A DNA stretch of 64,000 nt from a virus (IMGVR_UViG_2690316068_000002); one strand, 5' to 3'; positions 1-58,197 are shown, counted from the first letter of the stretch. A program made the numbers and translations. Notes: generated by a model from the letters alone, not told the origin.

Positions 1-56
1 CTAACATCCTGTCAGCGCCACAATGATAGTAAATTAGTACTTACTTATCCAGATAC

Positions 57-10063: not shown

Positions 10064-10136
10064 TTCTTGCTCCTACAAAAAGGGTGGGCGTATAGCCCAC
10101 CCTTAAACATAGATAATTACTTATCTACCACACTGA

Positions 10137-11946: not shown

Positions 11947-13521
11947 TCACTCGTTCTCTTGAGTAGATGAGTCCCCATTCCCTCGGGGTTGATCTTGCCC
12001 GCTTTCTTGGGCTGCACCACGATCATAAGTAAGTACTGACTTATTTTCAAGGGTATTTAGATCATTTTTTGGAGGAAAATTCAAGAGATCTTTATCAAAT
12101 TCCTTTTTCATCGCCTCAGTAATGTTCGGGAAAATCTTCTCAATAAGCATTTCCATCTGGTGACGACGTACAGAGTCCGGTGCCTGAAGTAATGACAGTT
12201 TCTCGGCAACAGAAAATTCATCAGTAAGGCCACGAATATCGAAACTTTCTGGATACGCAATTAAAGAGTGGTCTTCGTCCAGATCTACCCCCATCCATTT
12301 CGCAACCAGTAGCATGATTTGGCGTTCAGCCCTTTCCAGACGCTCTGCTTTTGTGACAAGCAAGCTATTTACACGCTGGAAGTCATACATTTTTGCGGCA
12401 CCAGATGAATTATCGATTCCCTGTGCGTTGTCCTGCTTCGTTCGCTCACCAGCTACACCAACTGAATGGTAGATTTCGTTAATCACCGTCTTAATCGTAG
12501 TGATGATCATCTGAGCTTGTTTCGGGTCTGGTGACAGATAAAACGGCTGGTTTCCACCTTCAGAATCGTAGGTGAAGACTCGCTTTGTGCCCATTTCAAG
12601 CACTTTAGTGTGGTTTTCATCACCAGGTAAAAGCGACTGTACCGGTATAGCCAACTGGCTAAATGTCTGATCCTGAATAATGGCATCAAGGTTTGACAGA
12701 TAGTTTGCAACCGCACGATCAAGATAAGCGATATCATCGATCAACGATGGGCTGAAATACGGTGATTCACTTTCTCCAATACAATCAACAGGAAACACAG
12801 GAACTACGCCGAGATTATGCGCGCCGCTGTCCTCTAAAATAACTTTTGCCTGACGACGACCTGCTCCACCAGCCCCCTTCTTCACTTCCTCACGGAACAG
12901 ATACCACTCGTTTTGTGTCCACAGACGATAACGTTGGTATTCCTGACCTGTAGAAGTAAAAGGATCTGCGTCATCGCGAGCGACTTCCACAATTAACGCC
13001 CATAACATATTCCCGTCGTCGTCCCATGCCACATCCAGCATTTGCTGAGGTGAAATCCAGTAGGCGTAGGCGCGAGCATCTTTCTTTTTCTCGTCAGCTA
13101 CTGACTCAACATCACCACTCATCGTGCTATCGACAACAACCCATATGCGACCGTAAATAGACGACTGCAAATCAATAGCGGCCATAAATGAGTCAATAGA
13201 GGCATTCTGGCGAGTCGCACGTTTCCAGAAATTGCGGATCTGCTCTGGTGCCTCTTCGATATTTCTATGAATGTCTTCTTTAAAGAGATATTTGTTGATG
13301 AGGTTTACCACCTCACGAGTGTGGTTGAAGCGATAAGCACGCTCAACTCGCTCCTTAAACTCCTGATCTCCCTCTTTAAAGTAACGAAAGATATTGTCTG
13401 TAAACCAACCACGCCCGCCAGCGTAAGTGCTGGCGAGGAAGTCCCAATGTTCTTTTTTCTTTTCGTATTCCGGGTGGCGTCGCGCCACCAGATCCTTAAT
13501 TTGTTTGTCGTTCAATTCCAT
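11947..13521 (-). CDS. Portal protein
   Basis: 524 aa, immediately downstream of large terminase and upstream of scaffold; acidic C-terminus. Confidence 0.7.
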   Translation of the reverse strand: MELNDKQIKDLVARRHPEYEKKKEHWDFLASTYAGGRGWFTDNIFRYFKEGDQEFKERVERAYRFNHTREVVNLINKYLFKEDIHRNIEEAPEQIRNFWKRATRQNASIDSFMAAIDLQSSIYGRIWVVVDSTMSGDVESVADEKKKDARAYAYWISPQQMLDVAWDDDGNMLWALIVEVARDDADPFTSTGQEYQRYRLWTQNEWYLFREEVKKGAGGAGRRQAKVILEDSGAHNLGVVPVFPVDCIGESESPYFSPSLIDDIAYLDRAVANYLSNLDAIIQDQTFSQLAIPVQSLLPGDENHTKVLEMGTKRVFTYDSEGGNQPFYLSPDPKQAQMIITTIKTVINEIYHSVGVAGERTKQDNAQGIDNSSGAAKMYDFQRVNSLLVTKAERLERAERQIMLLVAKWMGVDLDEDHSLIAYPESFDIRGLTDEFSVAEKLSLLQAPDSVRRHQMEMLIEKIFPNITEAMKKEFDKDLLNFPPKNDLNTLENKSVLTYDRGAAQESGQDQPRGNGDSSTQENE

Positions 13522-13547
13522 TTGAATAACCTTAGATAATTACTTAC

Positions 13548-14804
13548 CTATCTAGAACCACCAAGAATAACACGGTTTTTGACTGGATACCTACGATGTA
13601 CTGGATAGCCCAATGCGTCTGCACTATGCTCAATGCCACCTGTCTTATCCATATCTCGTGTTCCAGGCTTGTAGATGACTTTTTCCAATGAATCAATCAA
13701 ATGCTTGCACTTCGGATCGATATACAGCCGGATATCTCCAGATGCGGTCATCAGCATTCGGTTAACAGCATTAACACGATCCGCAATTGGCGGGTGCTTT
13801 TTCGAATAATCGACACGTAAGAATCCCTTCTCTTTGAATATGTCGACGTCAGACTCCCCGCGAGCATGTTGGCGATAAGCACCTGCCGGATCTGGAAATA
13901 CCGTTATCTGTGATTTCCAGCGCCAGAAGCGTCTCTCAAGCTCATCACAAACCTCTGCCGTGTTAGAGGAAAAGAGCACCAATTCATCAATTGCCCATAG
14001 CTCACCATTTGGCTGAGGTTGCAAAATTACTGAAGACATCGGGTCAATGTTGAAGTCCTGCCCTACCCATATAGGCAACCGAGGGTTGAACTGAAGCGGT
14101 TTTACATGCACGTTACGATCGAACGGGTAGTAAACGCGCCCGGACATGTTCTCAAAGCTCGCCAGGTACTCCTGAGCGAACGATTTCGGGTCCATATCGT
14201 TCTTAGCAGCTTCAATTTCCGCCGTAGGCACAAACGGAGAATCAGCAGTTACAAACTGCCAGCTCTTCCACTGTCCCTTTCTTTGCAGCTCTACGTTCTG
14301 GCCTATAGTCCACAGTTTGTGAAATTCCGAGAAGCCTTTTGGCGTACCAATGATCAGTGCACCGCCGCGTGTCGATGAAAGAGTAGGTCGTAACACCTTG
14401 TACCAAGTGTCAGCCTTCATATCCTGAAATTCATCAAGCACTACAAAATGCAACGCTACGCCGCGCAGAGTGTCAGGCTTATCAGCACCTTTGAGGGCGA
14501 TCTCCGAACCGTTCTTCAACACGATTGTCATCGTGGTGTCGTTCTTTTTCCTAACCCACTTACGAGGCAGAACTTCCTGTAGATCGTCCCACAAAATCTG
14601 GCGAGCCATCTGGTAAGTAGGAGCGACATACCAGACCCTTTGCTTTTTTTCCTTTGCCGCCGCACGAATAATAGTGGAGATCGACAACCGGGATTTTCCC
14701 CAGCGTCGACCAGCACAAACAACTTTAAATCGATGCGGAGACTGGAAGACTTTCATCTGTCCAGAATGCAGTTGCACAAGACTGAGCGAGGACGGGATTG
14801 CCAT
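13548..14804 (-). CDS. Terminase large subunit
   Basis: 418 aa; Walker A (CAGRRWGKS), Walker B (HFVVLDEFQD), C-terminal nuclease-type acidic motifs (WVGQDFNIDP). Confidence 0.85.
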   Translation of the reverse strand: MAIPSSLSLVQLHSGQMKVFQSPHRFKVVCAGRRWGKSRLSISTIIRAAAKEKKQRVWYVAPTYQMARQILWDDLQEVLPRKWVRKKNDTTMTIVLKNGSEIALKGADKPDTLRGVALHFVVLDEFQDMKADTWYKVLRPTLSSTRGGALIIGTPKGFSEFHKLWTIGQNVELQRKGQWKSWQFVTADSPFVPTAEIEAAKNDMDPKSFAQEYLASFENMSGRVYYPFDRNVHVKPLQFNPRLPIWVGQDFNIDPMSSVILQPQPNGELWAIDELVLFSSNTAEVCDELERRFWRWKSQITVFPDPAGAYRQHARGESDVDIFKEKGFLRVDYSKKHPPIADRVNAVNRMLMTASGDIRLYIDPKCKHLIDSLEKVIYKPGTRDMDKTGGIEHSADALGYPVHRRYPVKNRVILGGSR

Positions 14805-15436
14805 TATTCGTCCTCCCCTTCACTTCCATCATCTGTCGCGTCAAATTCGCTTAGAGCTTCTTCTTCCAACGTCTCAAGCAATTCGTCATCGATGATTTCA
14901 GGCTCGTCGTCTTCCTGACGTAATTTCGCCACCTGGGAAGGCGTAAGCTCACCAAATACCAGGTTCGGAATTTCTTCCTCGTCATTTTCCGCATGATCCA
15001 TGCCCAATGCTTTGGACGAAACTTCAAAGCATTTTGCAAGGGTATTACTGGCTCTCTGTAAGCTCTTGAGAGAATCCTCAATCGCCCCTAAAGGCTTACC
15101 CTCACGTTTGGCCGTAGTGACTTCGACCATCACCATCTGCCCCAACGCATACGCCCAGCCGTCATAACGTGTACGACGTTCTTCTATCTTTTCCGCACGG
15201 GCTTTAGCGCGAAGCTCTGCGTCAGATTTAAGAGACTCACGAACCATCTTCCCAACAGAGTCCGCGCCTTTCTCTAATCCTCGCTTTTTGAAATGTCTGG
15301 AGAGTGTTTCACGACGAATGCCGTACTCTTCCTCCAGCTTTGAGAGTGTATATTCGCCTGACGTCCATTTGGCTTCAGCTTCGGCCCACTCCGCTGGTGT
15401 CAGGCGAGTTTTTACCTCGTCTTTTTCGACCGTCAT
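14804..15436 (-). CDS. Terminase small subunit (putative)
   Basis: 210 aa immediately upstream of and abutting terL; N-terminal HTH-like region, acidic C-terminal tail. Confidence 0.5.
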   Translation of the reverse strand: MTVEKDEVKTRLTPAEWAEAEAKWTSGEYTLSKLEEEYGIRRETLSRHFKKRGLEKGADSVGKMVRESLKSDAELRAKARAEKIEERRTRYDGWAYALGQMVMVEVTTAKREGKPLGAIEDSLKSLQRASNTLAKCFEVSSKALGMDHAENDEEEIPNLVFGELTPSQVAKLRQEDDEPEIIDDELLETLEEEALSEFDATDDGSEGEDE

Positions 15437-15550
15437 AGATCCCTCTAAAACACACAGAGCGCGTCCATGCGCTCTAAAACAACTTGTTTACTGCATCTGC
15501 TAACCAACTTGTTTTCTGGGTTGTTTAATTAGGTCTGGCATGTCTTACGA

Positions 15551-15609
15551 AGCCTGCTTCCGTATATATTTAATAAGTTACTTATTATTTATATATACAG
15601 AAGCAGGTC
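15551..15609. repeat. 59-bp AT-rich palindromic element, copy 1
   Basis: agcctgcttccgtatatat...atatatacagaagcaggtct; 19-bp stem around an AT-rich centre; a second near-identical copy lies at 47941-47999. Confidence 0.8.
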
Positions 15610-15631
15610 TTTAAATAAGCTCCCAGACCGA

Positions 15632-15898
15632 TTACATCACCAGTAACTTCGCTTTGGCTCGACCTAAAGTGGTTAACCCAAGAGTTCGGCGGTGATAGCG
15701 ATTGTCACTGCGTTGGCGCGTATGCCCTTTCTCCACCAGCCCCTTTTTTATCAGAGCGCGAATTGAGAACTGGATACTTTGCTTGGTTGTCTTGTACGGC
15801 AAAACTTCAAGCAATTCGTCCAGGTCAAGTAGATGACCTCGCTCATAACCGAGATTGAGCGTTTTGATGATGTCCTTTTGTTTATCGGTTAACGTCAT
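15632..15898 (-). CDS. Small winged-helix-type DNA-binding protein (putative)
   Basis: 88 aa, basic C-terminus; weak HTH resemblance. Confidence 0.35.
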   Translation of the reverse strand: MTLTDKQKDIIKTLNLGYERGHLLDLDELLEVLPYKTTKQSIQFSIRALIKKGLVEKGHTRQRSDNRYHRRTLGLTTLGRAKAKLLVM

Positions 15899-15907
15899 GG
15901 CAAATCC

Positions 15908-16798
15908 TTATGCCGGTAAAGCAATTTCTAACGGTTTATCCAAAGGTTGTTTGTCGAATGCCAGCAGTGGCAGCGTGTCAGGCAGTCGACGGCCAAAGTC
16001 AGGGTTTCGGTACACACCATACAACGGAGACGTAAAGCTCAGGTTGTGAATGTCCTTGAGCAGCTTCACAATGCTGGCCTCGTCCACCAGACTGTCGGCA
16101 ATGTCCTGAATCGTCGTGCCACGATTCCGCCCAGCTTTTGCCAGGGAACTGTTCTTGTGGTAGTCCGCTACCAGATCACGCAGTGCACGGCGACGACGAG
16201 ACTCGCTCATTGCGAACAACTCTTTGACGATCGCCTCGTTATCACCCGGGTCGGAACGGAAATGGCGCTGGAATACACGCAGTGCACTTTCATAGCTCTT
16301 CGGTCGCTCAGGGCGGATGAACTTAAACCCTGCTTTCATGGCGAAGGGATTGTATTTGCTCATCGAGGACTGGATCTCAATGATTGGCCGGTCATGCATC
16401 CTGCTAACCAGGTTAATCATTCGATAAGAGACGCCTACGCCACGATACTGAGTATCCACAACTGAGCGACTGATCACCGCAAAGTTGTTATTCACGTACC
16501 GACCCCAGTACTGGTTAGCCACGGTGGTATTAGTGGTTGGTTTCAACTTAGGAAACATGCGGTGGCGAGGTGCCAGCAGTAGTTTCGGGTAAGCCATAAC
16601 CACGACGCCCACCAGACGGTCATCAAGTTCGCAGCGATAGTAAGTTGGCGCGAAAGGTTTGCCGTCTGTTTTGTAGTGAAGCGACTTAAGAGCGTGCCAG
16701 TCCTCTACAGTTCCCTTTGTGACAGTCATTCGCTCCAGAAAGTCCAGATGACGCGGAAACTCTTCAGGGCGGTAGCGTTTAATGATGATGTCCGTCAT
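15908..16798 (-). CDS. GNAT-fold acetyltransferase-like protein (tentative)
   Basis: 296 aa; candidate acetyl-CoA motif R-x-x-G-x-G (YRGVGVSYRMINLV) in a beta-strand-rich context; stop overlaps start of downstream ABC ATPase gene. Confidence 0.4.
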   Translation of the reverse strand: MTDIIIKRYRPEEFPRHLDFLERMTVTKGTVEDWHALKSLHYKTDGKPFAPTYYRCELDDRLVGVVVMAYPKLLLAPRHRMFPKLKPTTNTTVANQYWGRYVNNNFAVISRSVVDTQYRGVGVSYRMINLVSRMHDRPIIEIQSSMSKYNPFAMKAGFKFIRPERPKSYESALRVFQRHFRSDPGDNEAIVKELFAMSESRRRRALRDLVADYHKNSSLAKAGRNRGTTIQDIADSLVDEASIVKLLKDIHNLSFTSPLYGVYRNPDFGRRLPDTLPLLAFDKQPLDKPLEIALPA

Positions 16799-17460
16799 AA
16801 ATGAACCTCATCATGACTACCATTGTGATATTCCACCTTCACGCGTTCTTTGTAGTGCTTGGTGATCTGCATATCCGGGCGCAGCGCGTTCTTCAGGTCT
16901 TCGTGAGTCGTCGCCACCATTACCGTCGCACCAACCTTTCGAGCGGCACGCTGGAGGTTAGATGCCACAACCTGAGCGGTTACACGGTCTAGAACAGCAC
17001 CGAACTCGTCAGCAGCCCACACTTTAGCGCCTGACTCAATCAGTTTGGCAATCTTGAGACGATATTTCTGACCGTCTGACATTTCAGAAGGCTTGCGAAC
17101 AAACAGATATGCATCGTTCAGACCAGCCATAGATAACAACCCAAGCGCATCGCTGGTCGTTTTGCCCAACTGATCGATGACGTTAACCTCATTATCGAAG
17201 GTAAAATCATCGATGGAGGCTACAGACAGCCCTTCATCCTTCATCTGTCGTTGCAACTCGCGCAGCACAACGGATTTGCCGGAACCGGATTGGCCGGTGA
17301 TGTACACCACATCGCCCTGCTTCACTTCCAGCTCCAGATTGTCGTAAAGCGTCCACTCTTTTTCGTCCAGGCCAAGCCCGAACGACTCAGCGATTTCCAA
17401 CGTGCGCGTGGTTTTATTTACGCGTGTCTGAAACGATACGTTGATGATGTATTTGCTCAT
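16795..17460 (-). CDS. Stand-alone ABC-type ATPase
   Basis: 221 aa; Walker A GQSGSGKS, ABC signature-like SDGQKYRL, Walker B VWAADEF, H-loop TTHED. Confidence 0.7.
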   Translation of the reverse strand: MSKYIINVSFQTRVNKTTRTLEIAESFGLGLDEKEWTLYDNLELEVKQGDVVYITGQSGSGKSVVLRELQRQMKDEGLSVASIDDFTFDNEVNVIDQLGKTTSDALGLLSMAGLNDAYLFVRKPSEMSDGQKYRLKIAKLIESGAKVWAADEFGAVLDRVTAQVVASNLQRAARKVGATVMVATTHEDLKNALRPDMQITKHYKERVKVEYHNGSHDEVHL

Positions 17461-18158
17461 GCAGCCATCTCCCCGGAAGAGATCTTCTCCGCATATGCCA
17501 CAAATGCGTCTACCCCGCTTTCTCCCGTCATTTCTTCCATGTGGGCAAGCAAATCACCAACAACAATGGCAGAGCCAGCAGGAAGCGTTTTAAAGCCCAA
17601 TACGTCGACAACACGTACTTCTTCCGCTGCAACTTCACGACTGATCTCGGTGTGTTCATCCTTCTGTCGTTTAGTTTCTTCGCCAAGATCGATAACTAGC
17701 GAGTCGGTGTCCATTTCTTCTGTCATGCTGCCAACGAGAACATTCAACTCACGCTCTTCAAAGCCGAAAACCTCGATATCGTCCAGAACAAGCGACTCAA
17801 GCTCTTTCTGTAGCTTAATTGCATCGTAATCAATGCTGGCAAGTCGGTTATCTTCAAGGCGCTTCGCACGAACCTCGTCATCACTGAGATCATCGCGAAC
17901 AATAACCGGTACGCGCTCAAGTCCAGCAAAAATTGCAGCCTCACGGCGGCCGTGGCCAGTAATAATTACGTCGTTCTTATCGACCGTAATTGGCTGGTCA
18001 AATCCGCGCTTTTTAATGGCTGCGGCTAGATCTCGGATCTGCTGTTCATCATGCTTTTTGGCATTCATCTCATAGGGAATAAGATCTGCCGGGTCGCGAT
18101 ATACGATTTCAAACTTTTTGGTCATTACATACGCTCCTTGTAGTAGTCGACCAGCCAC
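17457..18158 (-). CDS. ParB N-terminal domain (ParB/Srx-like) protein
   Basis: 233 aa; ParB-type motif ITGHGRREAA; acidic C-terminal half. Confidence 0.6.
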   Translation of the reverse strand: MAGRLLQGAYVMTKKFEIVYRDPADLIPYEMNAKKHDEQQIRDLAAAIKKRGFDQPITVDKNDVIITGHGRREAAIFAGLERVPVIVRDDLSDDEVRAKRLEDNRLASIDYDAIKLQKELESLVLDDIEVFGFEERELNVLVGSMTEEMDTDSLVIDLGEETKRQKDEHTEISREVAAEEVRVVDVLGFKTLPAGSAIVVGDLLAHMEEMTGESGVDAFVAYAEKISSGEMAA

Positions 18159-18823
18159 ACCAGAGCCTCACCAGCGTTCTCCATTTCATTACCGGTGTTA
18201 ATAGCCTGCTCTTTGATGATGTTTTTTATGGTTTCTGCAACACGATCTGACGCATCGAAAGTTACTTTGAAGCGCATGGTCTGATGTTCCGCCCCCACAC
18301 GTTCGGTTTTCTCTCGTTTGTCGGTATCGACAGGCTCATCACTACCACGAGACAACGCCTCCAGTGCTTCAAGGTCGATTGCCGCCTCTTTTGCTAAAAC
18401 CATCGAGATTTCGTCGTCATACGGGGCGATTTCAGACAGTTGATAGTCAAGTTCTGACTGAATTTCTTCAATGAAGCGTTGCAATGCGATTTGGTCGTCT
18501 TCACCGTATCGCTCGTTGTCCACCAGTGACATCTGTTTAGCTACGACATCGCTAATTTTGCCCACAGAAAGCACCGGAACCGTTGAAATTCCTTGCTCAA
18601 TAGCAGCACGCCAGCGATGTTCGCCGCCGAGGATTTCAAAAAATCCATCTTCAAGTTCACGAGCCAAAATTGGCTTAAAAAAGCCCAATTTTTCGATAGA
18701 ACCTTTCAGTTTTTCAAAATTCTGCGCACCAACCGAATTGGTGTTCCAGGTATTCGGGCGAAGGTTGGCAACATCAACCTGCAAAATCGTGATTTTTACA
18801 TCCATTTTATTGCTACAATCCAC
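18125..18823 (-). CDS. ParB-like nuclease domain protein
   Basis: 232 aa; ParB-box-like ILGGEHRWRAA. Confidence 0.55.
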   Translation of the reverse strand: MDCSNKMDVKITILQVDVANLRPNTWNTNSVGAQNFEKLKGSIEKLGFFKPILARELEDGFFEILGGEHRWRAAIEQGISTVPVLSVGKISDVVAKQMSLVDNERYGEDDQIALQRFIEEIQSELDYQLSEIAPYDDEISMVLAKEAAIDLEALEALSRGSDEPVDTDKREKTERVGAEHQTMRFKVTFDASDRVAETIKNIIKEQAINTGNEMENAGEALVWLVDYYKERM

Positions 18824-24254: not shown

Positions 24255-24280
24255 GAGCGCCCACTATGGGCGCTTTTTTC
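24255..24280 (+). terminator. Rho-independent terminator (hairpin + T-run)
   Basis: agcgccca-cta-tgggcgct followed by tttttt. Confidence 0.6.
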
Positions 24281-25348: not shown

Positions 25349-25698
25349 GATTGATTCCTTATCGTAAATAACAAATTGTTTTCTTGTTGGTGTTAATTAT
25401 CGTTGTACGAATAAGGCGTCAAAGTGGAAAGTTGCGGTAGCCGGACGGGAACAGGTGGGTTTGTCGGTTGCCTGGAGGTAAGAGGTTGGTGTTTTTAGCC
25501 TGCGGGAAACAGGATGGTCATTTAAGGCCACCAATGCTGATGGCCTTAATAATTATCGACCTATTACGCTAAGGATCTTTTCCTCAACTGATTTGTTGTT
25601 GCGACTAAACTGCCTTGCGTATCTGATGACAGAAGAGGCGTTTTGCTTTCTGACCATCTCGGCTCTTTCCTTCAGGCGTTTCTTGAAATCGCCCATAT

Positions 25699-26712: not shown

Positions 26713-27054
26713 TCAGGCTATTGCCATCACTGATGCTCTCTGAATTTCTTGCTGGGCCACGCGGTTAACTTCCATCAAGGCCAGTTCGAGCTGATGTTCC
26801 GGCCACATTCTTTGAAATGCCACCCATCCTTTTCCACGCTGGCGACGAACATTCATTACATAACGAGTAAAGGTGTTTTTATCGAAAGACACCGCTGTTT
26901 CACGGAACAGACGAATAGAGGTTCCATTGGCAACGATGTCCAGCAAAGTTAATTGAGCAACCAGCGCAGGCTTCTCTTTTCTCTTCTGGTCTTTGTCCAG
27001 ACCAAGAACCAATGATTTTTTCATTACAACTCCGTAAACAACTTGTTTTCTCAA
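26713..27054 (-). CDS. Hypothetical basic protein
   Basis: 113 aa ORF-track call; probable start at the internal MKKSLVLG; motif-1 upstream (27045-27068). Confidence 0.45.
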   Translation of the reverse strand: MRKQVVYGVVMKKSLVLGLDKDQKRKEKPALVAQLTLLDIVANGTSIRLFRETAVSFDKNTFTRYVMNVRRQRGKGWVAFQRMWPEHQLELALMEVNRVAQQEIQRASVMAIA

Positions 27055-27177
27055 TGGCGTAAATAATACCAGTAAGAAAACGGCTACAAAGCATATTGAT
27101 CAGGTGCATGAGCGATATGCAGGTTCTTCCCTGCGGCTATAGAGAAATTAAGCCAGCAATGCTGGCTTTGGTTGAGG

Positions 27178-27525
27178 TTACGCGAATACCTCAAGAAATT
27201 CCTGAACGTCCCAATGCTGGACAAGGTGAAGATAGACCTTAGAAATCACGTCATTCTCGCTATCGCATGTGAAGTAGTACTTCTGGCTGCGGTTGTATGT
27301 GTCTACACAAAATTCGCTCATATCCATAAAGTCAGCATCTTCACCCATGTCGCAAATCATCAAAGCAGGTGCGTCATCACGAGTCATCAGCTCAAGCACC
27401 CACCGCGAATTGATCAGAGTGGAAGACCAACCTTCTAACTCATAAAACTGATCAAACTCTTTTTGAGTTAATTTCTTGATTTGGTTGATGTCGATATTTG
27501 CAAACATAAAGCAATCCTTAAACAA
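27178..27525 (-). CDS. Hypothetical acidic protein
   Basis: 115 aa ORF; motif-1 immediately upstream (27527-27565). Confidence 0.5.
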   Translation of the reverse strand: MFKDCFMFANIDINQIKKLTQKEFDQFYELEGWSSTLINSRWVLELMTRDDAPALMICDMGEDADFMDMSEFCVDTYNRSQKYYFTCDSENDVISKVYLHLVQHWDVQEFLEVFA

Positions 27526-27864
27526 GATGTTTTCTTAATGGTGTTATTATCGCAATAACGCACAGGCGAAAAAGGATTTTATTCCGGTGAATGTGGTTTT
27601 GGCAGTGAGTTTTCAGGTTCAGTACCGAGTACACTTTTTACATTATTCTGATTTAGTGGCCGAAGGTGGCTGGTGGGCAGAATAATCCTCTCCCCGAAAA
27701 CCTACTGAAATCGATTGTGACCCGTTGGCTGTCTGGCACAATTACGCTGTAGCTGGGCATTCAGAGGGAGTCCAACGGTAAGTTAGTCCGCCTGCACGTG
27801 AGCGCCTCTCTTCTTCCCGCACATTACAGGTGTGTAGCCGCAACTCTCCCTCTCGCTATACCGG

Positions 27865-28920: not shown

Positions 28921-29081
28921 TTATTTAGTTGTTTTCTTATTGGTATAAACAACGTTAACCTATTGATATTTAAAGGTGTGATTGCAGGTATGGAAGAAGA
29001 GTAGTGGCGATCAACGGATTCTTATAGAAAAGAATCAAATTGTGACCGCCATTATCAACTGATTGATTAAGCTAATTACAC

Positions 29082-30751: not shown

Positions 30752-30903
30752 TCCGAAACAATTTGTTTTCTTATGTGGCTTATTATCTCAATCAACAAAA
30801 GGTAGAAAACAAATTATTTTAGGGCTTGTGTAAATCAGGAGGGATTGTGTCTATATGAAAATGCCCAGCGTGTTGCCGGGCATTGTGAAGAATGGTTGTT
30901 TAG

Positions 30904-32937
30904 TTACTTAACTTGGTGGCCTGGTTTAGCACCAGCATCCGGGCTTAACAGGAAGATATCTTTTCCGCCAGGGCCAGCAGCCATCACCATGCCTTCAGAG
31001 ATACCGAAGCGCATTTTACGCGGAGCCAGGTTAGCCACCATAATTGTGTGACGACCAATCAGTGCCTGTGGGTCTGGATAAGCAGAACGGATGCCTGAGA
31101 AGACATTACGCTTTTCACCACCGAGATCCAGTGTCAGGCGCAACAGTTTGTCAGAACCTTCAACAAACTCCGCGTTTTCAATCAGCGCCACACGCAGGTC
31201 AACTTTGGCGAAGTCGTCAAAGGTGATGGTTTCCTGAATCGGGTCGTCAGCCAGTGGGCCAGTTACCGGTGCGGCTGTGGCTTTCACTTCTTCTTTGGAT
31301 GCTTCCACCAGTGCTTCCACCTGTTTCATATCGATACGGTTATACAGTGCCTTGAACGGATTCACTTTATGGCCCAGCAGCGGTTGCTGGATACCATCCC
31401 AGGTCAGTTCTGTATTCAGGAATGCTTCTGCACGTTCAGTCAGTTTCGGCAGTACCGGTTTCAGGTACGTCATCAGCACGCGGAACAGGTTAATGCCCAT
31501 AGAGCAAATCGCCTGCAGATCGGCATCGCGCCCTTCCTGCTTCGCCACCACCCACGGAGCCTGTTCATCGACATAGCGGTTAGCCAGGTCAGCCAATGCC
31601 ATGATTTCACGGATAGCTTTACCAAATTCGCGGCTTTCCCATGCTTCGCCAATCACTTCAGCGGCATCAGTAAAGGTTTTGTACAGTTGCGGGTCAGCCA
31701 GTTCGCTTGCCAGCACGCCGTCAAAACGCTTGTTGATAAAGCCTGCATTACGGGAGGCCAGGTTAACCACTTTGTTCACGATATCGGCATTCACGCGCTG
31801 AACGAAATCCTCCAGGTTGAGATCGATATCATCAATGCGCGAAGAGAGTTTCGCAGTGTAGTAGTAACGCAGGCTGTCGGCGTCAAAATGATTCAGCCAG
31901 GTGCTGGCTTTAATAAAGGTGCCGCGAGACTTGGACATCTTCGCGCCGTTCACCGTCACATAGCCATGAACAAACAGGTTGGTCGGCTTGCGGAAGTTGC
32001 TGCCTTCCAGCATGGCAGGCCAGAACAGGCTGTGGAAGTAAACAATATCTTTACCGATGAAGTGGTACAGCTCGGCGGTGGAGTCTTTCTTCCAGTATTC
32101 ATCGAAGCTGGTGGTATCGCCGCGCTTGTCGCACAGATTCTTGAAGGAACCCATGTAGCCAATCGGCGCGTCCAGCCAGACGTAGAAATATTTGCCCGGC
32201 GCGTTCGGAATTTCAAAACCGAAGTAAGGCGCATCTCGGGAGATATCCCACTGTTGCAGGCCGGATTCAAACCATTCCTGCATTTTGTTCGCCACCTGCT
32301 CCTGCAACGCGCCGCTGCGGGTCCATGCCTGCAACATTTCGCTGAAAGAAGGCAGATCAAAGAAGAAGTGTTCGGAATCACGCATTACCGGGGTAGCGCC
32401 AGAAACCACCGATTTCGGCTCGATCAATTCAGTCGGGCTATATGTTGCGCCGCAGACTTCACAGTTATCGCCGTATTGATCTGGCGCTTTACATTTCGGG
32501 CAGGTGCCTTTTACAAAACGATCCGGCAGGAACATGCCTTTTTCCGGGTCGTACAACTGAGAGATAGTGCGGTTTTTAATAAAACCGTTCTCTTTCAGGC
32601 GAGTATAGATAAGCTCAGACAACTGACGGTTCTCTTCGCTGTGCGTCGAGTGATAGTTGTCATAGCTGATGTTAAAGCCTGCGAAATCAGTCTGGTGTTC
32701 CTGACTCATTTCGCCAATCATCTGCTCCGGTGTGATACCAAGCTGCTGTGCTTTCAGCATGATCGGCGTACCGTGGGCATCGTCGGCACAGATGAAATTA
32801 ACCTCGTGGCCGCGCATTCGCTGGTAACGAACCCAGACATCAGCCTGGATGTGCTCCAGCATATGGCCGAGGTGGATTGAGCCGTTAGCGTACGGCAGCG
32901 CGCACGTCACCAGAATTTTCTTCGCGACTTGGGTCAT
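30904..32937 (-). CDS. metG: Methionyl-tRNA synthetase
   Basis: 677-aa product from [29 protein letters not shown] (HIGH motif), KMSKS motif, C-terminal tRNA-binding domain; near-identical to enterobacterial MetG from memory. ORF-track upstream extension (to 33066) rejected. Confidence 0.95.
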
Positions 32938-33094
32938 AGTAGGCATTACTTCTTTGTAGTGAAAAGGGGCTTGATAGTAACAAAATGGCCTTATGTCTGC
33001 CATGTGATAACAGCATTTCTCATAAATGATTAAATGTCGTAGCTGGAGTACACTACAAGGCGACAATTGCGCAAATTAAAATAAAGGAGACGGG

Positions 33095-34195
33095 ATGAGC
33101 GAGTCCAAATCGCCGGATGCCCTGAGAGCAATGGTAGCCGGTACGCTGGCTAATTTTCAGCACCCAACCCTGAAACACAACCTGACTACGCTTAAAGCGT
33201 TACACCATGTTGCGTTGATGGATGACACACTGCATGTCGAACTAATCATGCCTTTCGTGTGGAATAAGCCTTTTGAAGACCTGAAAGAGCAATGTAATGG
33301 TGATCTGCTCCGTATCACTGGCGCAAAGGCTATTGACTGGAAGCTGTCGTACAACATTGCCACGCTTAAGCGCGTCAAAAACCAACCAGGTATTAATGGC
33401 GTTAAGAACATTATCGCCGTCAGCTCAGGCAAGGGCGGCGTGGGTAAATCCTCCACGGCGGTAAACCTGGCACTGGCGTTGGCTGCTGAAGGTGCGAAAG
33501 TTGGTATTTTGGATGCCGATATCTATGGTCCATCAATTCCAACCATGCTGGGCGCGGAAAACCAACGTCCAACCTCACCTGACGGTACTCACATGGCACC
33601 TATCATGTCTCATGGCCTGGCAACCAACTCTATTGGTTATCTGGTCACCGACGACAATGCAATGGTGTGGCGTGGACCGATGGCCAGCAAGGCGCTGATG
33701 CAGATGTTGCAGGAAACTCTATGGCCTGATCTGGACTATCTCGTTCTCGATATGCCGCCGGGCACTGGTGATATTCAGTTGACGCTGGCGCAGAACATTC
33801 CTGTAACTGGTGCGGTTGTGGTAACTACGCCGCAAGACATCGCGCTGATCGATGCGAAGAAAGGCATTGTGATGTTCGAAAAAGTCGAAGTGCCGGTACT
33901 GGGTATCGTCGAAAACATGAGTGTGCATATTTGCAGTAACTGCGGTCATCACGAGCCAATTTTTGGCACCGGTGGCGCACAGAAACTGGCCGAGAAATAC
34001 AACACGCAGTTGTTAGGCCAAATGCCACTTCATATCTCTCTTCGTGAAGATCTGGATAACGGAACACCAACCGTTATTAGTCGTCCAGATAGCGAATTTA
34101 CGGCTATTTATCGTGACCTCGCAGATCGCGTTGCTGCCCAAATGTATTGGCAAGGTGAAGTAATACCTGGCGAAATCGCATTCCGCGCAGTGTGA
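33095..34195 (+). CDS. apbC: Fe-S cluster carrier ATPase ApbC/Mrp
   Basis: 366 aa; P-loop SSGKGGVGKSS, CxxC motif (CSNCGHH), divergent from metG as in enterobacterial chromosomes. Confidence 0.9.
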   Translation: MSESKSPDALRAMVAGTLANFQHPTLKHNLTTLKALHHVALMDDTLHVELIMPFVWNKPFEDLKEQCNGDLLRITGAKAIDWKLSYNIATLKRVKNQPGINGVKNIIAVSSGKGGVGKSSTAVNLALALAAEGAKVGILDADIYGPSIPTMLGAENQRPTSPDGTHMAPIMSHGLATNSIGYLVTDDNAMVWRGPMASKALMQMLQETLWPDLDYLVLDMPPGTGDIQLTLAQNIPVTGAVVVTTPQDIALIDAKKGIVMFEKVEVPVLGIVENMSVHICSNCGHHEPIFGTGGAQKLAEKYNTQLLGQMPLHISLREDLDNGTPTVISRPDSEFTAIYRDLADRVAAQMYWQGEVIPGEIAFRAV

Positions 34196-34232: not shown

Positions 34233-34622
34233 CTACATCACGGGACAATCATCAAACTCGCCACTTCTTGCGTCGTTGATAATGTGAGTGATCACACCAA
34301 ACACGGCATTGCTGCCCGTGCATCCATCGTCATCCTTTGGCAATGCTTCCTTCTTACCGGTTCTTAAATCCTCCAGATGCTGACGTGGATACTTCCGGTA
34401 TCTTTTTACGCGATATTCCCCATCCAGAGCGCATACAAGCAGAGAACCATCAACCGGGGTAAGTGAGGAATCGACCACCAGCAATGCACCCTGTAATATT
34501 CCCTCACGATGATGACTATCAGCTGCCCTCATGAAGTAGGTCGCTGAAGGATGTCTAATTATCTGCTGATCAAGAGAAATACGGCTCTCAGCATAATCCG
34601 CCGCAGGAGAAGGGAAGCCCAT
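34233..34622 (-). CDS. UmuD'-like S24 peptidase-family protein (N-terminally short relative to UmuD)
   Basis: 129 aa; begins MGFPSPAADY, i.e. at the position equivalent to the RecA-facilitated Cys24-Gly25 cleavage site of UmuD; Ser (ADSH) and Lys (RVKRY) positions conserved; C-terminal insertion relative to UmuD. Confidence 0.7.
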   Translation of the reverse strand: MGFPSPAADYAESRISLDQQIIRHPSATYFMRAADSHHREGILQGALLVVDSSLTPVDGSLLVCALDGEYRVKRYRKYPRQHLEDLRTGKKEALPKDDDGCTGSNAVFGVITHIINDARSGEFDDCPVM

Positions 34623-34638
34623 AATACTCGCCTCTTAA

Positions 34639-34658
34639 TACTGTATATACATACAGTA
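34639..34658. promoter_or_regulatory. LexA (SOS) box
   Basis: taCTGTatatacatACAGta, a perfect CTGT-N8-ACAG palindrome, 17 bp upstream of the UmuD'-like start codon and its AAGAGG Shine-Dalgarno. Confidence 0.75.
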
Positions 34659-41391: not shown

Positions 41392-41452
41392 GTGTTTTTC
41401 TCTTATCGTTTAGTAACTACATTCTTACACAAATTAGGTAAGTATTTACCTA

Positions 41453-43138
41453 TCATTTAACGCGTTTGAAAACGTATACGCTGACTGTGATCCCTGTGTC
41501 TTCAAACTCGTTGGTAAACGACTTCCCTCTGGCATAAACGTAATTATCCATCGTCATCCAGTCCAGTATTGGCGCAGTGCCCGGCAATACTGCTACAAGA
41601 CGCCCGCCGACTTTCAGATGCCCCAGCGCAGCCAGCGTGTGCTCTCTATGACGACCAAGCGAGTACGGCGGGTTCATAACGATTTTGTCGAACTGATAAC
41701 CTACGTTGTCCTCAGACCACTTTATGAAGTCGCAGCAAATCGTGTTCGTATACCCTTTTCCGCGCAGGATATCAGCGAAGAGAGGTGCGATTTCTATGCA
41801 GGTAACATCTTCCAGATCGGCGTTGATATAGGCCAGAAGATCCCCACGTCCGGCTTGAGGCTCCAGCAGCTTCTCACCAGACTTCAATTCAGTGGCTCTG
41901 GCAACGTACTCAGCAATCAAGCGTGGGGTAGGGTAGAACTGGTGTGATTTTGTATCCGGTATTAATCCGGTAGCCACAATCGTATTTAGCGTATGGCCGA
42001 TCTCATACGGGAACTGCCAGTGCTTTTTCTCCTGCACGCCGCCAATGAAGCTCAGTGTGCGCTCAAGCTCTTCCACCTGCGACTTCTGGAGAGCTGAATC
42101 AGAGAAGTACCATACGCCTTTGTCTTTGCTTAATCGCCCGTCACGAAGCGCAGTGCGAACCGGCACGGAGATCGTCTTCTGGATTAACCCGAACTGCTTT
42201 GGTGCCCGTGTTTTTGGCGCGGTGCGACATGGCGCGGGGATTGCAGCAGGCATACTGTAAGCCAGCACCTCATTCAACTTCCAGGCCACGTCAGGATGTA
42301 TTTCAAAGTGAACGTTGCCGTTCTTGAACATCTTCACGCGCATTAGATTTCCATCGACGTTCATCCAGTCACCGGTCTGGCAGTCGTTTGCCCGATACGC
42401 AGCTGATAGCACCTCAGCAGTGCGGTTGATGGTAATAAATTCTTTGTGCGCGAAGAAATGAAGCAAGACACGCAGATCGTCGATATAGTCCTCTTTGCGA
42501 TAGTTCACACTAACGCTGTCCCGCCAGAAATCAGAAATGCAGTCAGCGATTATCAGACGTTCGCTGAAACCGTTTGTCTTATTTGTCTTGTGCGCAGGAC
42601 TCAGCGCCTTAAACAAGCCATACACGCGCTCAGAGAGATATTTGTGCCTGTCATTCAGCAAATTAAGCATCGTGGGTATGACCGTTTCTGCTTTGAACTC
42701 CGGTACACCAACGAACTCTTTAACCTTCATCTGGTAGCCGGTTCTGTCAGTTTTGATGACTTCCTGTTTGCCCTCTATAAACTGCTCGCGCCACTCATCT
42801 CGACGGGAAGCTGGCATGATCAGCAAAACGTTAGTCATGTCCGTGACCTTCCTCCAGTACTCGGCCCAAATATTCTGTTTCACCCATTCCAGATCGACTT
42901 TATCCAACCAACCTCGATTTAAACGCGAGCGATCTTCATCTGGTCGATGGTTTAGTCTCAGCAGGCGATTAATCATGTTGTGGCGTTCGTCGCCATAAAC
43001 GAAGTCGTGTACCTGATACATGAAGGCGATCTCTTTCTCGCACTCGGCCACAATTTCGTGGATGACGTTCATTTCCTGCCGATAGTCGATAGCAGTGTTT
43101 GAGTTGGCATCGTCGATGATGGAAAGGGCTGTATTCAT
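41453..43138 (-). CDS. DNA methyltransferase (amino-MTase, NPPY motif) with large N-terminal domain
   Basis: 561 aa; C-terminal AdoMet-binding-like EPQAGRGDL followed by catalytic NPPY. Confidence 0.65.
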   Translation of the reverse strand: MNTALSIIDDANSNTAIDYRQEMNVIHEIVAECEKEIAFMYQVHDFVYGDERHNMINRLLRLNHRPDEDRSRLNRGWLDKVDLEWVKQNIWAEYWRKVTDMTNVLLIMPASRRDEWREQFIEGKQEVIKTDRTGYQMKVKEFVGVPEFKAETVIPTMLNLLNDRHKYLSERVYGLFKALSPAHKTNKTNGFSERLIIADCISDFWRDSVSVNYRKEDYIDDLRVLLHFFAHKEFITINRTAEVLSAAYRANDCQTGDWMNVDGNLMRVKMFKNGNVHFEIHPDVAWKLNEVLAYSMPAAIPAPCRTAPKTRAPKQFGLIQKTISVPVRTALRDGRLSKDKGVWYFSDSALQKSQVEELERTLSFIGGVQEKKHWQFPYEIGHTLNTIVATGLIPDTKSHQFYPTPRLIAEYVARATELKSGEKLLEPQAGRGDLLAYINADLEDVTCIEIAPLFADILRGKGYTNTICCDFIKWSEDNVGYQFDKIVMNPPYSLGRHREHTLAALGHLKVGGRLVAVLPGTAPILDWMTMDNYVYARGKSFTNEFEDTGITVSVYVFKRVK

Positions 43139-44780: not shown

Positions 44781-44820
44781 CTTAAACAAGTTGTTTTCTT
44801 ATTGGCTTTATTGTGATGTG
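44781..44820. promoter_or_regulatory. Palindromic upstream motif family 1, representative copy
   Basis: cttAAACAAgTTGTTTtcttattggctttattgtgatg; AAACAA-N-TTGTTT inverted repeat about 20-45 bp upstream of the start codon. Confidence 0.5.
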
Positions 44821-46283: not shown

Positions 46284-46428
46284 GTGGACTCCATCCAGTG
46301 TCAGAAAGAGTTGCGGCTGGCGATTGCCAGCCGCCTTTCTCGTTCCATCCTGGAACTGTGTCTTACCGACACATTGTCATCCTGACGCCGATAAGATACA
46401 TGATTTAAAATGATAGGTAAACACTTAC

Positions 46429-47022
46429 TTACTGCTTGTTGTAAACAAAACCAATATCTTTCTTGTGAGGCATATCTGCTGCGGAAAAAGCTGCGATCTT
46501 CGCGAGTCGATCACATATTTCATTTTCACGATGCCCGGCGTGACCTTTAACCCACTTCCAGCGAACATTATGTCGACTTGCAGCCTCATCCAGACGCTTC
46601 CACAGATCAACATTCTTTACCGGTTTTTTATCAGAAGTCATCCATCCATTACGTTTCCACCATTTCATCCACTGTGTCATGCCGTTTTTCAGATACTGGC
46701 TATCAGAGTACAAAATAACGTTGCATGGATATTTCAAACGCTCCAGCCCGATAAGTGCGCCCATCATCTCCATGCGGTTATTGGTGGTGCTATGAAAACC
46801 ATCTGAGAACTCGCGTTCCTCACCACGATACTGGAGAACGATACCGTAACCGCCCGGGCCACCCGGATTTTTAAGGCAAGAGCCATCACTAAAGATTTTC
46901 ACGGTTTTGAGCTGGGGATTGAACTCTACGACAGGCGTTGTGGGATTGGTGCGGGGAGATTTTTTGTTTTTGGCTTTTTTGCGAGTTTTTGCTTGCGATC
47001 GGGCTGGTGTCTTCGTCGTCAT
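46429..47022 (-). CDS. Ribonuclease H (RNase HI-like) with basic N-terminal extension
   Basis: Core IFSDGSC...GYG..L..R....S.TTNNRMEM...Y.DS.Y matches RNase HI active-site architecture; start placed at the Met preceded by GGAG. Confidence 0.75.
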
Positions 47023-47074: not shown

Positions 47075-47604
47075 CGCGTGCGTGTTAATAATTATTAAAA
47101 TAAACAAATTACTTCCCAGAACAGGTTTTTATAAACCTGAACTGAACGAACGAAGTGAGTGAAGTTCACCTCGAACGAAGTGAGAGGTTGTCTTTTCAGG
47201 TAATACTCTCCCAGGGAGGTGAGTATAAAATTCCTCACCAACCTGGTCGTTTCATAACCTGAAAAGCTATGGTCTAAGTCTACTGCCAGCTTAGACTTGG
47301 GAAGTTATGGATGACAGCACCCCAGAACCGAGATCTTCCCACACTTTATGAAGGGGAGTACTGGATTCAACCTCTCGAAACACCCCAGACTCGACAATCA
47401 TAAAGTGACCCTTGTCTCTGCTCACTTTGGTTCCCCCTTCCCCGACACCTAAACGGCACCGGTTCTACGCTGGTAGTGAGCTTTTTTAAACCTGACGCCA
47501 GTGACGCTTACCCCCACCCATCAGGTCGAGTCTCCAGTCTACGACTGGAAACTATCAGATCTTAGCACTTACAATTCACTTTATAAATAGTTTGTACTTA
47601 TCTA
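47075..47604. other. 530-bp intergenic region without ORFs
   Basis: Direct repeats (cgaacgaagtgag x2), hairpins (ggtgag...ctcacc), C-rich tracts; no ORF of 60 aa or more on either strand. Confidence 0.5.
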
Positions 47605-47859
47605 TCATTGTGATTGATTATTTTCTCGACCATGTAGTTGAACATTCAAGGCAAACACCTCATTGATCAACTCACCTAAAAGCTGTTCAACAAGTTCGCG
47701 ATGCTCGCCAAGATGCAAGCACTTAATTGCCCACTCGTACAAGTTGAAAGCCTGCTCACGATCTTTCATCATTTCACGAGCCTGGGCCAGAAAATCGCTC
47801 TCTACGAGCGCAACGACATTAGTCGGGTATGACATGTTGGTTTCCTTAAAGTGGTTCAT
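47605..47859 (-). CDS. Hypothetical protein
   Basis: 84 aa ORF. Confidence 0.45.
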   Translation of the reverse strand: MNHFKETNMSYPTNVVALVESDFLAQAREMMKDREQAFNLYEWAIKCLHLGEHRELVEQLLGELINEVFALNVQLHGRENNQSQ

Positions 47860-47940
47860 AAAATCGATTTTAAAGCGTCTGGGAAGGGGTTCTAGTGGAT
47901 TCTGTAGTGATGTTCAGGTCTGGAGTCTCTGATACAAAAC

Positions 47941-47999
47941 AGCCTGCTTCCGTATATTAATAATTAATATGTAGTTATTTATATATACAGAAGCAGGCT
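47941..47999. repeat. 59-bp AT-rich palindromic element, copy 2
   Basis: agcctgcttccgtatat...atatatacagaagcaggct; same arms as the copy at 15551-15609. Confidence 0.8.
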
Positions 48000-48020
48000 A
48001 ATTACAGACGCCAGAACAAA

Positions 48021-48623: not shown

Positions 48624-48652
48624 CGATAGGTAAGTGATTACCTATTTTTGCA
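48624..48652. promoter_or_regulatory. Palindromic intergenic motif family 2, representative copy
   Basis: tcgATAGGTAAGTgatTACCTATtttt; about 14 related copies in intergenic positions across the window. Confidence 0.5.
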
Positions 48653-58124: not shown

Positions 58125-58197
58125 GTATCACCAAATAAAGAGGGCCACTAAATATAGTGGCCCATGTTAATAGATAAGCACTTACCTATCAATGAAA

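Follow-up and report, generated by a model that had tools for sequence, protein, structure and literature searches.

Inverted-repeat elements at three conserved gene-block junctions of SSU5-type phage-plasmids: putative control sites for a lineage-specific protein

Dispersed repeat elements on phage and plasmid replicons

Among the closest known systems are the C1 operators of phage P1, whose annotated record holds monovalent and bivalent (inverted-pair) operators scattered over the phage-plasmid. Like the element described here, these operators are asymmetric units on a replicon of ~100 kb that occur singly or as inverted pairs ahead of lytic operons, and those of the lytic replication, helicase, and late activator operons serve as comparison points. 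The two systems differ in detail: P1 units are 17 bp long and the paired ones overlap, whereas our units comprise ~25 bp plus a box, with 1-100 nt of A+T-rich DNA between the members of a pair, and in the Escherichia coli lineage they form only three sites, the operators of P1 being far more numerous. Because tblastn searches of three genomes for homologues of P1 C1, Coi, and Lpa gave no match with E <1, the similarity to P1 would be one of working mode and not of family.

A few palindromes dispersed over a replicon are also found in the centromere of N15, recognized by SopB, and in the OB sites of RK2, recognized by KorB; in both cases one plasmid protein binds the sites and affects nearby transcription as well. 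Our element resembles these in its small number of dispersed palindromes and in that one of them adjoins a parA-type operon, whereas the N15 and RK2 sites are short symmetric sequences (13-16 bp) and ours are long, asymmetric, also found singly, and variable in spacing. The replication origins oriS and oriL of HSV-1 and oriL and oriR of SPP1 share with our element a palindrome, an A+T-rich centre, flanking boxes, and several copies, one of them located between divergent genes next to replication genes; unlike them, the element also has solo units at operon junctions. Long hairpin-forming intergenic repeats at gene-block borders are further represented by the RNase III hairpins of T7 and the PeSL (promoter-early stem-loop) cassettes of T4-type phages. 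PeSLs are tied to modular shuffling, to which the variable gene content on one flank of one of our sites is comparable. These repeats act as RNA or as cassettes of promoter and terminator with ordinary signals, whereas in our element pairing does not appear to be conserved across lineages, and consensus scans called neither a promoter nor a terminator at the two copies in the 64,000-nt stretch of viral DNA that was analyzed (the window). In the literature, we found no occurrence of the arm sequence, and papers on Cyrano/LF82, on resistance-carrying phage-plasmids, and on a new phage-plasmid family do not mention SSU5 termini, palindromes, or lytic origins; broader searches yielded generic papers on packaging. 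As far as our literature search reached, the three-site element is undescribed.

Anatomy and positions of the element

The window is part of a phage-plasmid of the SSU5/pHCM2/pMT1 type. The flanks of both palindromes in it are at least 99% identical to Escherichia phage CMS-2020a and Cyrano (pLF82), 74-80% identical to Salmonella phage SSU5, and ~75% identical to Klebsiella relatives. The complete plasmid CP088541.1 (109,285 bp) matched the stretch tested with 100% identity, and position 1 of the window corresponds to its position 13,348.

The core palindromes of site 1 and site 2 occupy positions 15551-15609 and 47941-47999, as the initial annotation had placed them. A search for the arm AGCCTGCTTCCGTATATA with up to three mismatches gave four matches in the window (15551-15568 and 47941-47958 on the plus strand, 15592-15609 and 47982-47999 on the minus strand), compared with a mean of 0.04 in shuffled sequences, none of 100 of which had four; both palindromes are far above the chance expectation. 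At site 1, the arms read CCTGCTTC(C/T)GTATATA (15553-15568 and 15592-15607; nhmmer E ~1e-6 for each arm) around a centre of 94% A+T. The same arms at site 2 enclose a diverged, non-palindromic centre. The inverted repeat, described as perfect in the initial annotation, turned out to be imperfect in both copies. At arm position 11 (19-mer numbering), the C of the left arm faces an A of the right arm on the plus strand (ccg...cag), one arm having TTCCG and the other TTCTG, which gives C·A on the plus strand and G·U (G·T) on the minus strand; moreover, the outermost two bases of copy 1 (ag/tc) are unpaired. The two copies, reported as near-identical, are so in their arms and not in their centres: copy 1 is palindromic nearly to its middle (aataagt-t-acttatt), copy 2 is not, and the overall identity is 82% over 57 nt.

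The extent of 59 bp also had to be revised. Inverted outer boxes surround both copies, with GGTCTGG...GTCTT on one side and AAGAC...CCAGACC (CCAGAAC at site 2) on the other, 14-20 nt beyond the arms, and the same boxes flank site 3 (see below) and the orthologues. Because these boxes lie beyond both arms, the element is ~100 bp long. At site 1, the left box (15532-15550) has GGTCTGG at 15532-15538 and GTCTT at 15542-15546, and its inverted partner (15610-15629), with CCCAGACC at 15622-15629, ends 2 nt short of the stop codon of an 88-aa gene. At site 2, the left box (47917-47940) contains GGTCTGG (47917-47923) and GTCTC, and the right box (48000-48017) contains CCAGAAC (48011-48017) and adjoins the stop codon of a dam gene (48021-48023). 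Target-site duplications were found at neither site 1 nor site 2. In line with the earlier proposal of a cruciform or a stable hairpin, both strands fold well, with RNA hairpins of -27 to -34 kcal/mol (z -6 to -8) and DNA hairpins of -14 to -16 kcal/mol (z -6.6 to -8.9). For the three sites, the RNA folding energies were -33.6, -27.8, and -32.0 kcal/mol on the sense strand versus -27.5, -27.0, and -23.7 kcal/mol on the antisense strand.

The genes around both copies are all encoded on the minus strand, which is thereby the sense strand. Copy 1 lies ~22 nt past the stop codon of the 88-aa gene (15632-15898, minus strand; phrog_900, annotated as DNA-binding in relatives), the last gene of an operon that begins with a pair of ParB_N proteins and also holds ABC-type ATPases. 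The ParB_N proteins have a further match, to the N-terminal portion of a PHROG family whose annotation is DNA methyltransferase. On its other side, copy 1 is 115-117 nt ahead of the ATG (15436) of terS, the putative small terminase gene (14804-15436, minus strand; phrog_867, 'DNA binding domain'), which is the first gene past site 1 and overlaps the start of the large terminase gene terL (13548-14804, minus strand; Terminase_6N/Terminase_3 type). The terS leader (15455-15530, minus strand), outside the palindrome, carries two AAACAAGTTG(G/T)TT motifs followed by a GC hairpin with a T run (15476-15455). Copy 2 lies ~21 nt past the stop codon (48021) of the dam-type adenine methyltransferase gene (48021-48614, minus strand) and 82-84 nt ahead of the next ATG (47859), which belongs to a small gene (47605-47859, minus strand; phrog_5343). 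A sequence search against solved structures with TerS, the 88-aa protein, and phrog_2500, which is encoded next to site 3, gave no match.

What had been noted as a duplication holds for the window, and a third copy is present elsewhere on the replicon. We joined the window to the remainder of CP088541.1 and sought arms by pattern search and with an nhmmer profile. There were exactly six arms (E <=1.2e-5; the next match had E 3.9), that is, three palindromes, and nhmmer found neither single arms nor copies outside the three sites in this plasmid of the E. coli type. Site 3 (106,512-106,564 of CP088541.1, in which sites 1 and 2 fall at 28.9 and 61.3 kb) is beyond the window, between divergent genes. 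On one side, 117 nt away, is an operon of phrog_2500, a DnaB-like helicase, a primase, and a ligase; on the other, 121 nt away, is a divergent gene that differs between plasmids. This far flank, away from the replication operon, holds a 1059-nt gene, a different 768-nt gene, no extra gene, or unrelated DNA. In some contigs (L030 and L109), rearrangements adjoin the sites. The intervals between the three sites are 32, 45, and 32 kb on the 109-kb circle, and in this genome every copy precedes the first ATG of the following block by 84-117 nt. Upstream of site 3 there is a small ParA gene (222 aa; NCBIfam ParA_partition, 2e-33) with a partner of 117-120 aa; this pair adjoins site 3 directly in the Raoultella type, and one variable gene intervenes elsewhere.

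To survey the distribution, IMG/VR was scanned for the arm, which gave 120 stretches; together with other loci, including some from PLSDB, these yielded ~100 full palindromes. Every palindrome with placeable flanks (~100 copies from IMG/VR and PLSDB) fell at one of three intergenic positions, which E. coli, Salmonella, Klebsiella, Enterobacter, and Yersinia pMT1 have in common. The hosts of the element are E. coli, Salmonella, Klebsiella, Enterobacter, Citrobacter, Cronobacter, and Yersinia pestis (pMT1). Among complete E. coli genomes, 260 of 5426 carry it, and 955 of 957 places are plasmid-borne; in PLSDB, it is found on ~700-800 plasmids of Klebsiella, E. coli, Enterobacter, Salmonella (pHCM2-type), and Yersinia pestis (pMT1). 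We traced TerS and the protein encoded ahead of the helicase into distant relatives and retrieved the complete plasmids Moellerella pW1-b and Pectobacterium Drgb1, both of which have inverted repeats at these positions, ahead of terS, past dam, and ahead of the replication operon. The three positions are thus common to Enterobacteriaceae, Morganellaceae, and Pectobacteriaceae, and by this comparison they appear to have been kept since before these families diverged. The site before terS, to which the initial annotation had drawn attention, is accordingly conserved in relatives, together with two further sites away from the packaging genes.

The sites are not kept equally well. Site 1 has decayed in the Klebsiella michiganensis and Raoultella types; the K. 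michiganensis type retains the base of the stem followed by a T9 run, and site 3 of the Raoultella type is intact (a megablast search of PLSDB with the latter found no record). In Enterobacter, a degraded plasmid of 61 kb retains parA, the partner gene, and site 3 after loss of sites 1 and 2. In distant lineages, the best-kept arms are those of site 3.

Arms and boxes change in concert from lineage to lineage

At the same three positions, the arms of Moellerella and Pectobacterium (beginning GCCTAGCTCCCAT and GCCGCGCTCCCAT, respectively) are unlike those of the window. The Moellerella arm is GCCTAGCTCCCATAGTATTTATA and the Pectobacterium arm GCCG(C/T)GCTCCCATA(A/G)TATTTATA; the outer boxes differ as well, with CCGCAG... 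/ ACACTGCGGAA versus GGTCTGG/CCAGACC in the window. The mean identity of anchored arms was 0.72 between different sites of the same genome, compared with 0.52 between lineages, both for the same site and for different sites. Copies that share a genome thus evolve in concert. Between the anchors, the centre measures 33-35 nt and is 94% A+T in the window type; in Moellerella and Pectobacterium, it is non-palindromic and measures 56-130 nt, with 80-88% A+T. These two plasmids also have solo units, each with a box and at least 24 conserved nt, at positions 12540, 38857, and 64222 in Moellerella and 65267 in Pectobacterium. All four are located at operon junctions in one shared orientation, two of them after ordinary terminators.

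Within the E. coli type, the arm consists of the invariant blocks CCTG, TC, and GTATATA, and positions 5, 6, and 9 vary without compensation in the opposite arm. Such invariant blocks split by uncompensated positions resemble a protein site and not a stem. Both arms change together in the comparison of deep lineages, as would also be the case for a symmetric DNA site. Counted over the unique elements of the E. coli lineage, which are not phylogenetically independent, the sense strand has 26 G.U pairs and 38 mismatches, and the antisense strand 8 G.U pairs and 56 mismatches. In E. coli as in Pectobacterium, all three sites share an arm position at which the sense-left arm has T and the sense-right arm C. 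Site 2 of Klebsiella folds better on the antisense strand (-28 to -32 versus -16 to -23 kcal/mol). Some orthologues have CTTTTT immediately past an arm. Taken across the lineages compared, pairing does not seem to be the conserved feature.

Possible functions of the element

We tentatively propose that the element consists of putative paired asymmetric DNA units for a lineage-specific protein that would control transcription at block borders, a reading to which we give a probability of roughly 0.35. The unit would be an arm, the inner A+T-rich stretch, and the outer box, asymmetric and ~25-45 bp long, and each unit would be recognized by a sequence-specific DNA-binding protein encoded on the phage-plasmid. 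The E. coli lineage has no units other than three head-to-head pairs, and these pairs are therefore palindromes. They stand at the junctions of successive co-directional gene blocks: site 1 heads the block of packaging and structural genes, site 2 follows dam, and site 3 heads the helicase-primase-ligase block. During plasmid life, the bound protein might insulate or gate the lytic block beyond it, serving as an operator or roadblock that works on both sides, much as the scattered C1 operators do in the phage-plasmid P1. We infer recognition of double-stranded DNA by such a protein from the asymmetric unit with its box, its solo and head-to-head use, the A+T-rich spacer of free length, the placement at block junctions, the single sequence per genome, and the uncompensated arm positions. 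An output in transcription across the borders, as operator, roadblock, or insulator, is suggested by the position of the units at block junctions. The arms themselves gave no match to the sigma-70 consensus in scans of the window copies and of Moellerella; one terminator-like call in the Moellerella scans corresponds to a short local hairpin inside the right arm of site 3. At site 3, the palindrome is not the proximal operator, because a second, more classical operator-like family, TAGGTAAGTnnTTACCTA, already occupies the -10/+1 region of the replication-operon promoter beside it. Several findings weigh against the operator reading. The element of the E. coli lineage is near-fully palindromic and its sense strand folds better, which would suit a role as RNA or single strand; an origin would likewise be in keeping with an A+T-rich core that lies between inverted sites beside replication genes; and gene conversion could produce part of the uniformity within a genome without a trans factor.

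On a broader and more speculative view, to which we give a fairly low probability, the element would be a three-site cis system in which a putative element-encoded protein co-evolves with paired units, and these units would partition the genome of 100-110 kb into domains for packaging, for replication, and for accessory genes. Such sites might be the lytic origins so far missing for a T4-like replisome, or they might combine segregation with silencing.

Lytic (phage-mode) origins, with inverted initiator units around a meltable A+T-rich core, site 3 as the primary origin and sites 1 and 2 as additional ones, would account for a good part of the anatomy, and we nevertheless regard them as rather unlikely. 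The core is 94% A+T in the window and 80-88% in Moellerella and Pectobacterium, and its length of 33-130 nt is as expected of an unwinding element rather than of a loop. Site 3 lies ~117 nt upstream of the helicase-primase-ligase operon between divergent genes, and it is site 3 whose arms are best kept in distant lineages and site 1 that decays in the K. michiganensis and Raoultella types. The genes of the phage-plasmid include a T4-like set for replication and recombination, with a gp32-like SSB (Pfam gp32, 1.7e-66) and RecA-like, SbcCD-like, and RuvC-like proteins. The plasmid origin is separate: arrays of the RepA iteron ATCCACTATAGAGAG are located on both sides of repA and are unrelated to the arms, which also excludes the palindromes as a RepA iteron origin. 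Viruses with several origins of such architecture are known (HSV oriL/oriS, SPP1 oriL/oriR, and T4), and an initiator co-evolving with its sites would be in keeping with the concerted evolution. This layout, an 80-94% A+T core between inverted sites with site 3 beside the helicase-primase operon, is necessary for an origin but not sufficient. Four solo units at operon junctions, all in one orientation with respect to transcription, are not expected of origins; sites 1 and 2 are located within long co-directional gene arrays; and GC skew tracks transcription and gene orientation with no origin signal. No initiator was found: the protein encoded ahead of the helicase is all-helical and its match to the gp59 fold is weak, and gp59 does not bind origins. 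A start at the RepA origin with recombination-driven continuation could serve instead.

We likewise doubt that the element functions as a sense-strand RNA hairpin between operons, whether as a site of RNase III-type processing, a 3'-end stabilizer, a factor-dependent terminator, or a nut-like target of antitermination. The hairpin is very stable (z -6 to -8), and at each of the three sites of the window type the gene-sense strand folds more strongly, but this polarity is reversed at site 2 of Klebsiella. Arm differences are mostly C/T transitions, which is reflected in the 26 sense versus 8 antisense G.U pairs, counts that come from related elements and could equally result from a C-to-T bias of the non-template strand; the T/C asymmetry shared by all three sites of E. 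coli and Pectobacterium points in the same direction as these counts. Sites 1 and 2 are ~22 nt past a stop codon with no other terminator there, the decayed site 1 of K. michiganensis keeps the stem base and the T9 run, and the CTTTTT right after an arm in some orthologues would also fit; in every lineage with an intact element, however, the sense strand of site 1 has no U tract, and site 3, between divergent genes, may therefore not be transcribed whole. A protein-bound hairpin such as lambda boxB with N would evolve in concert just as a DNA site would, but host RNase III needs no single arm sequence per genome. The conserved solo arms cannot form a hairpin, the non-palindromic centres of 56-130 nt would be very large loops, arm positions 5, 6, and 9 are uncompensated, and no Rfam family matched anywhere in the window at the gathering threshold.

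That the sites are dispersed centromere-like sites of a partition system, as are the SopB sites of N15, seems very unlikely. Site 3 is downstream of the small ParA gene and the gene for its 117-120-aa partner, site 1 is at the 3' end of the operon that starts with the two ParB_N-domain proteins, and the sites are spread at 32, 45, and 32 kb on the 109-kb circle. With two classes of motif, arm and box, placed about an A+T-rich core, the element recalls P1 parS, which is composed of box A, box B, and an IHF site, and parA, partner, and site 3 are what the degraded 61-kb Enterobacter plasmid keeps. Against this, the core varies more than threefold in length, which is hard to fit to a fixed bent complex, the small partner has no recognizable DNA-binding family, and phage ParB_N proteins beside terminase genes are often not centromere binders. 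Neither is a consistent unit orientation with respect to transcription expected of a centromere, and the studied partition site of pMT1 is of another type (P1/P7).

Still less probable is that the sites are remnants of a MITE/REP-like repeat, small, palindromic, and mobile or selfish, or that they are cassettes whose recombination promotes module exchange, in either case without a dedicated trans factor. Inverted terminal arms, a variable A+T-rich interior, and the existence of solo arms would agree with such an origin, as would the gene content that varies on the far flank of site 3 and the rearrangements beside sites in the two contigs mentioned above. The variable flank is also the one observation that bears on the earlier suggestion of a recombination or nicking site. 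The fixed positions argue that the element is not a mobile repeat, for lineage-specific insertion would not lead to the same three positions in Enterobacteriaceae, Morganellaceae, and Pectobacteriaceae; in addition, target-site duplications are absent, the element is nearly confined to one plasmid family (955 of 957 E. coli places are on plasmids), and the E. coli type has no copies beyond the three sites.

The initial annotation had put a packaging-related site next to terS first among its candidates. A pac or cos site recognized by the small terminase is, in our view, the least probable of the functions considered, and the palindrome by terS is more probably a control site read by a protein than a packaging signal. 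Copy 1 is 115-117 nt upstream of terS; the outer boxes, arms, and bendable core recall the pacL-pacC-pacR layout of SPP1; and headful packaging would tolerate extra pac sites. The terminase of the Terminase_6N/Terminase_3 type is usually associated with headful packaging or direct terminal repeats and not with cos. However, two more copies, after dam and before the helicase-primase operon, are far from packaging genes at conserved positions, which argues against pac and rules out a simple cos, since cutting at three copies would divide the genome into thirds, and it is site 1 that has decayed in some lineages with terS and terL intact. In GenBank, SSU5 and Cyrano are linear records whose first and last bases fall within copy 1, at the junction of centre and right arm. 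The start of the Cyrano record is 1 base from that of SSU5, and the Cyrano paper reports no determination of its ends, from which it appears that the Cyrano record was rotated to match SSU5. Other records named as virions do not start in copy 1. Virome reads of LF82 (ERR8973296) are cited in PMC9928086. In several IMG/VR loci, part of them from contigs 100-110 kb long, a copy lies no more than a few hundred nt from where the locus starts, as fits assemblers that break at a three-copy repeat, and such breaks explain the start of the SSU5 record equally well as a physical end does. Assemblies thus seem to break at the element, which probably also gave the SSU5 record its arbitrary start; that start is not to be taken as a physical end of the genome.

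A number of other identities were rejected. An intrinsic terminator, proposed earlier in bidirectional form, does not fit: the scan calls neither window copy, the sense strand continues past site 1 as CUUCGUAAGAC with no U tract, site 2 has only CUGUUUUG, and site 3 is between divergent genes. Real terminators in the window differ, consisting of a GC hairpin and a T run (e.g., 24255-24275). The 3' end of a transcription unit is a true description of sites 1 and 2 and a false one of site 3. A protelomerase target (telRL) is incompatible with the non-palindromic centre of copy 2, the three sites, and the circular records, and no protelomerase gene is present among the annotated genes of Cyrano or CP088541. 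The arm read outward resembles T4-late (TATAAATA) and T7-like (ACTATGGGAG) promoters, but the strand of the motif is not kept across lineages and no phage RNA polymerase or gp55-like gene is annotated; an outward phage promoter is likewise contradicted by solo arms that face away from the downstream genes and by the negative sigma-70 scans at the arms. A LexA half-site, CTGTATATA, is present in the arm, the full CTG-N10-CAG never; the likeness of the centre to Tus/Ter is an 8-nt chance resemblance (AATAAGTA); and the spacing of a candidate sigma-54 promoter downstream of site 1 is off by one.

To our knowledge, the switch of SSU5-type phage-plasmids from plasmid to phage life is largely unstudied. 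These phage-plasmids are common, and the element would offer a direct handle on the control of this switch. It may be used as bait for its binding protein, as a deletion target in pLF82/Cyrano, and as a sequence signature for lineage typing.

Palindrome families and the terS leader

Operator-like palindromes of a single family, TAGGTAAGTnnTTACCTA / ATAAGTAAnTTACTTAT, are spread over numerous intergenic regions, with copies at window positions 24-48, 10104-10127, 12025-12048, 13527-13550, 41434-41460, 46408-46431, 47583-47612, 48626-48649, 53460-53483, 58171-58196, and 62855-62878, and a further copy at ~29110-29130 of L129, a part of plasmid CP088541.1 beyond the window. They are probably scattered operators for the phage-plasmid's own repressor. 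In the replication-operon promoter adjoining site 3, the arm-bearing palindrome outside the window, the likely -10/+1 overlaps with one of these copies. The centre of the palindrome at site 1, before terS (AATAAGT-N-ACTTATT), resembles a half-spaced version of this family.

A second motif family, AAACAA(G/C)TTGTTT(TCT), is palindromic in its own right and lies immediately upstream of numerous minus-strand genes. It occurs at window positions 25370-25395, 27037-27062, 27521-27546, 28923-28948, 30757-30782, 30808-30833, 44785-44810, and 55735-55760, and twice in the terS leader (15480-15530), and may be the promoter or activator site of one temporal gene class.

The terS leader also carries, on the minus strand (window 15455-15476), the GC hairpin TAGAGCGCATGGACGCGCTCTG with GTGTGTTTT after it, and the terS ATG is located 18 nt downstream. 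This arrangement within the late-operon leader resembles a terminator or attenuator, so it is possible that the packaging genes are under antitermination control. The operon immediately preceding site 1 and terS on the minus strand (window 15908-18823) codes for two proteins with ParB_N domains, an ABC-type ATPase, and a protein of 296 aa, and its conservation reaches Moellerella, Xenorhabdus, and Pectobacterium.

Replication genes and the plasmid origin

T4-like replication and recombination genes are found outside the window at L129 8447-9475 and in its neighbourhood (CP088541 85.7-106.4 kb). The set includes a gp32-like SSB (Pfam 1.7e-66) and a 779-aa RecA-like protein, together with exonuclease, Pol III alpha, ligase, primase, DnaB-like helicase, SbcCD-like, and RuvC-like genes. 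The protein encoded before the helicase is all-helical, and its fold weakly matches that of T4 gp59. RepA iterons, ATCCACTATAGAGAG, repeat at a spacing of 21 nt in arrays that flank repA on either side (L129 1-550 and 1607-2100) and are accompanied by a DnaA-box-like sequence, TTATCCACA; these iterons with the DnaA-box-like sequence are the origin for the plasmid mode.

Apparently captured host genes and a LexA box

A MetRS-like gene (window 30904-33066, minus strand) adjoins an ApbC gene ('366-aa MinD'; window 33095-34195, plus strand), whose product scores 758 bits against the E. coli equivalog, and the pair looks like a host metG-apbC block captured into the phage-plasmid. A perfect LexA box, TACTGTATGTATATACAGTA (window 34637-34656), lies upstream of a 129-aa S24 peptidase gene (34233..34622, minus strand), the ATG of which is 14 nt beyond the box and the product of which begins with MGFPSPAADY, like processed UmuD'. 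The box and this gene may constitute an SOS-controlled input to induction.

Arm and site variants in relatives

Within the nrdA coding sequence of the Moellerella plasmid pW1-b (87,727-87,745; L142 37727-37745), 17 nt of the arm, the asymmetric half-unit of each palindrome, recur exactly, as ACTTATGGGAGCTAGGC; this could be either a chance occurrence or a functional internal site. The Enterobacter ludwigii plasmid NZ_CP116350 (61 kb; L005/L132) is a degraded SSU5-type plasmid that has lost terS/terL, dam, site 1, and site 2 (the copy after dam) and retains parA, the replication operon, and site 3. In a Morganella psychrotolerans contig (L138 9840-9890), the site 3 arms are inside-out (ATGGGAGCA-12 nt-TGCTCCCAT), which suggests that the palindromic element was locally rearranged at site 3 in this lineage.
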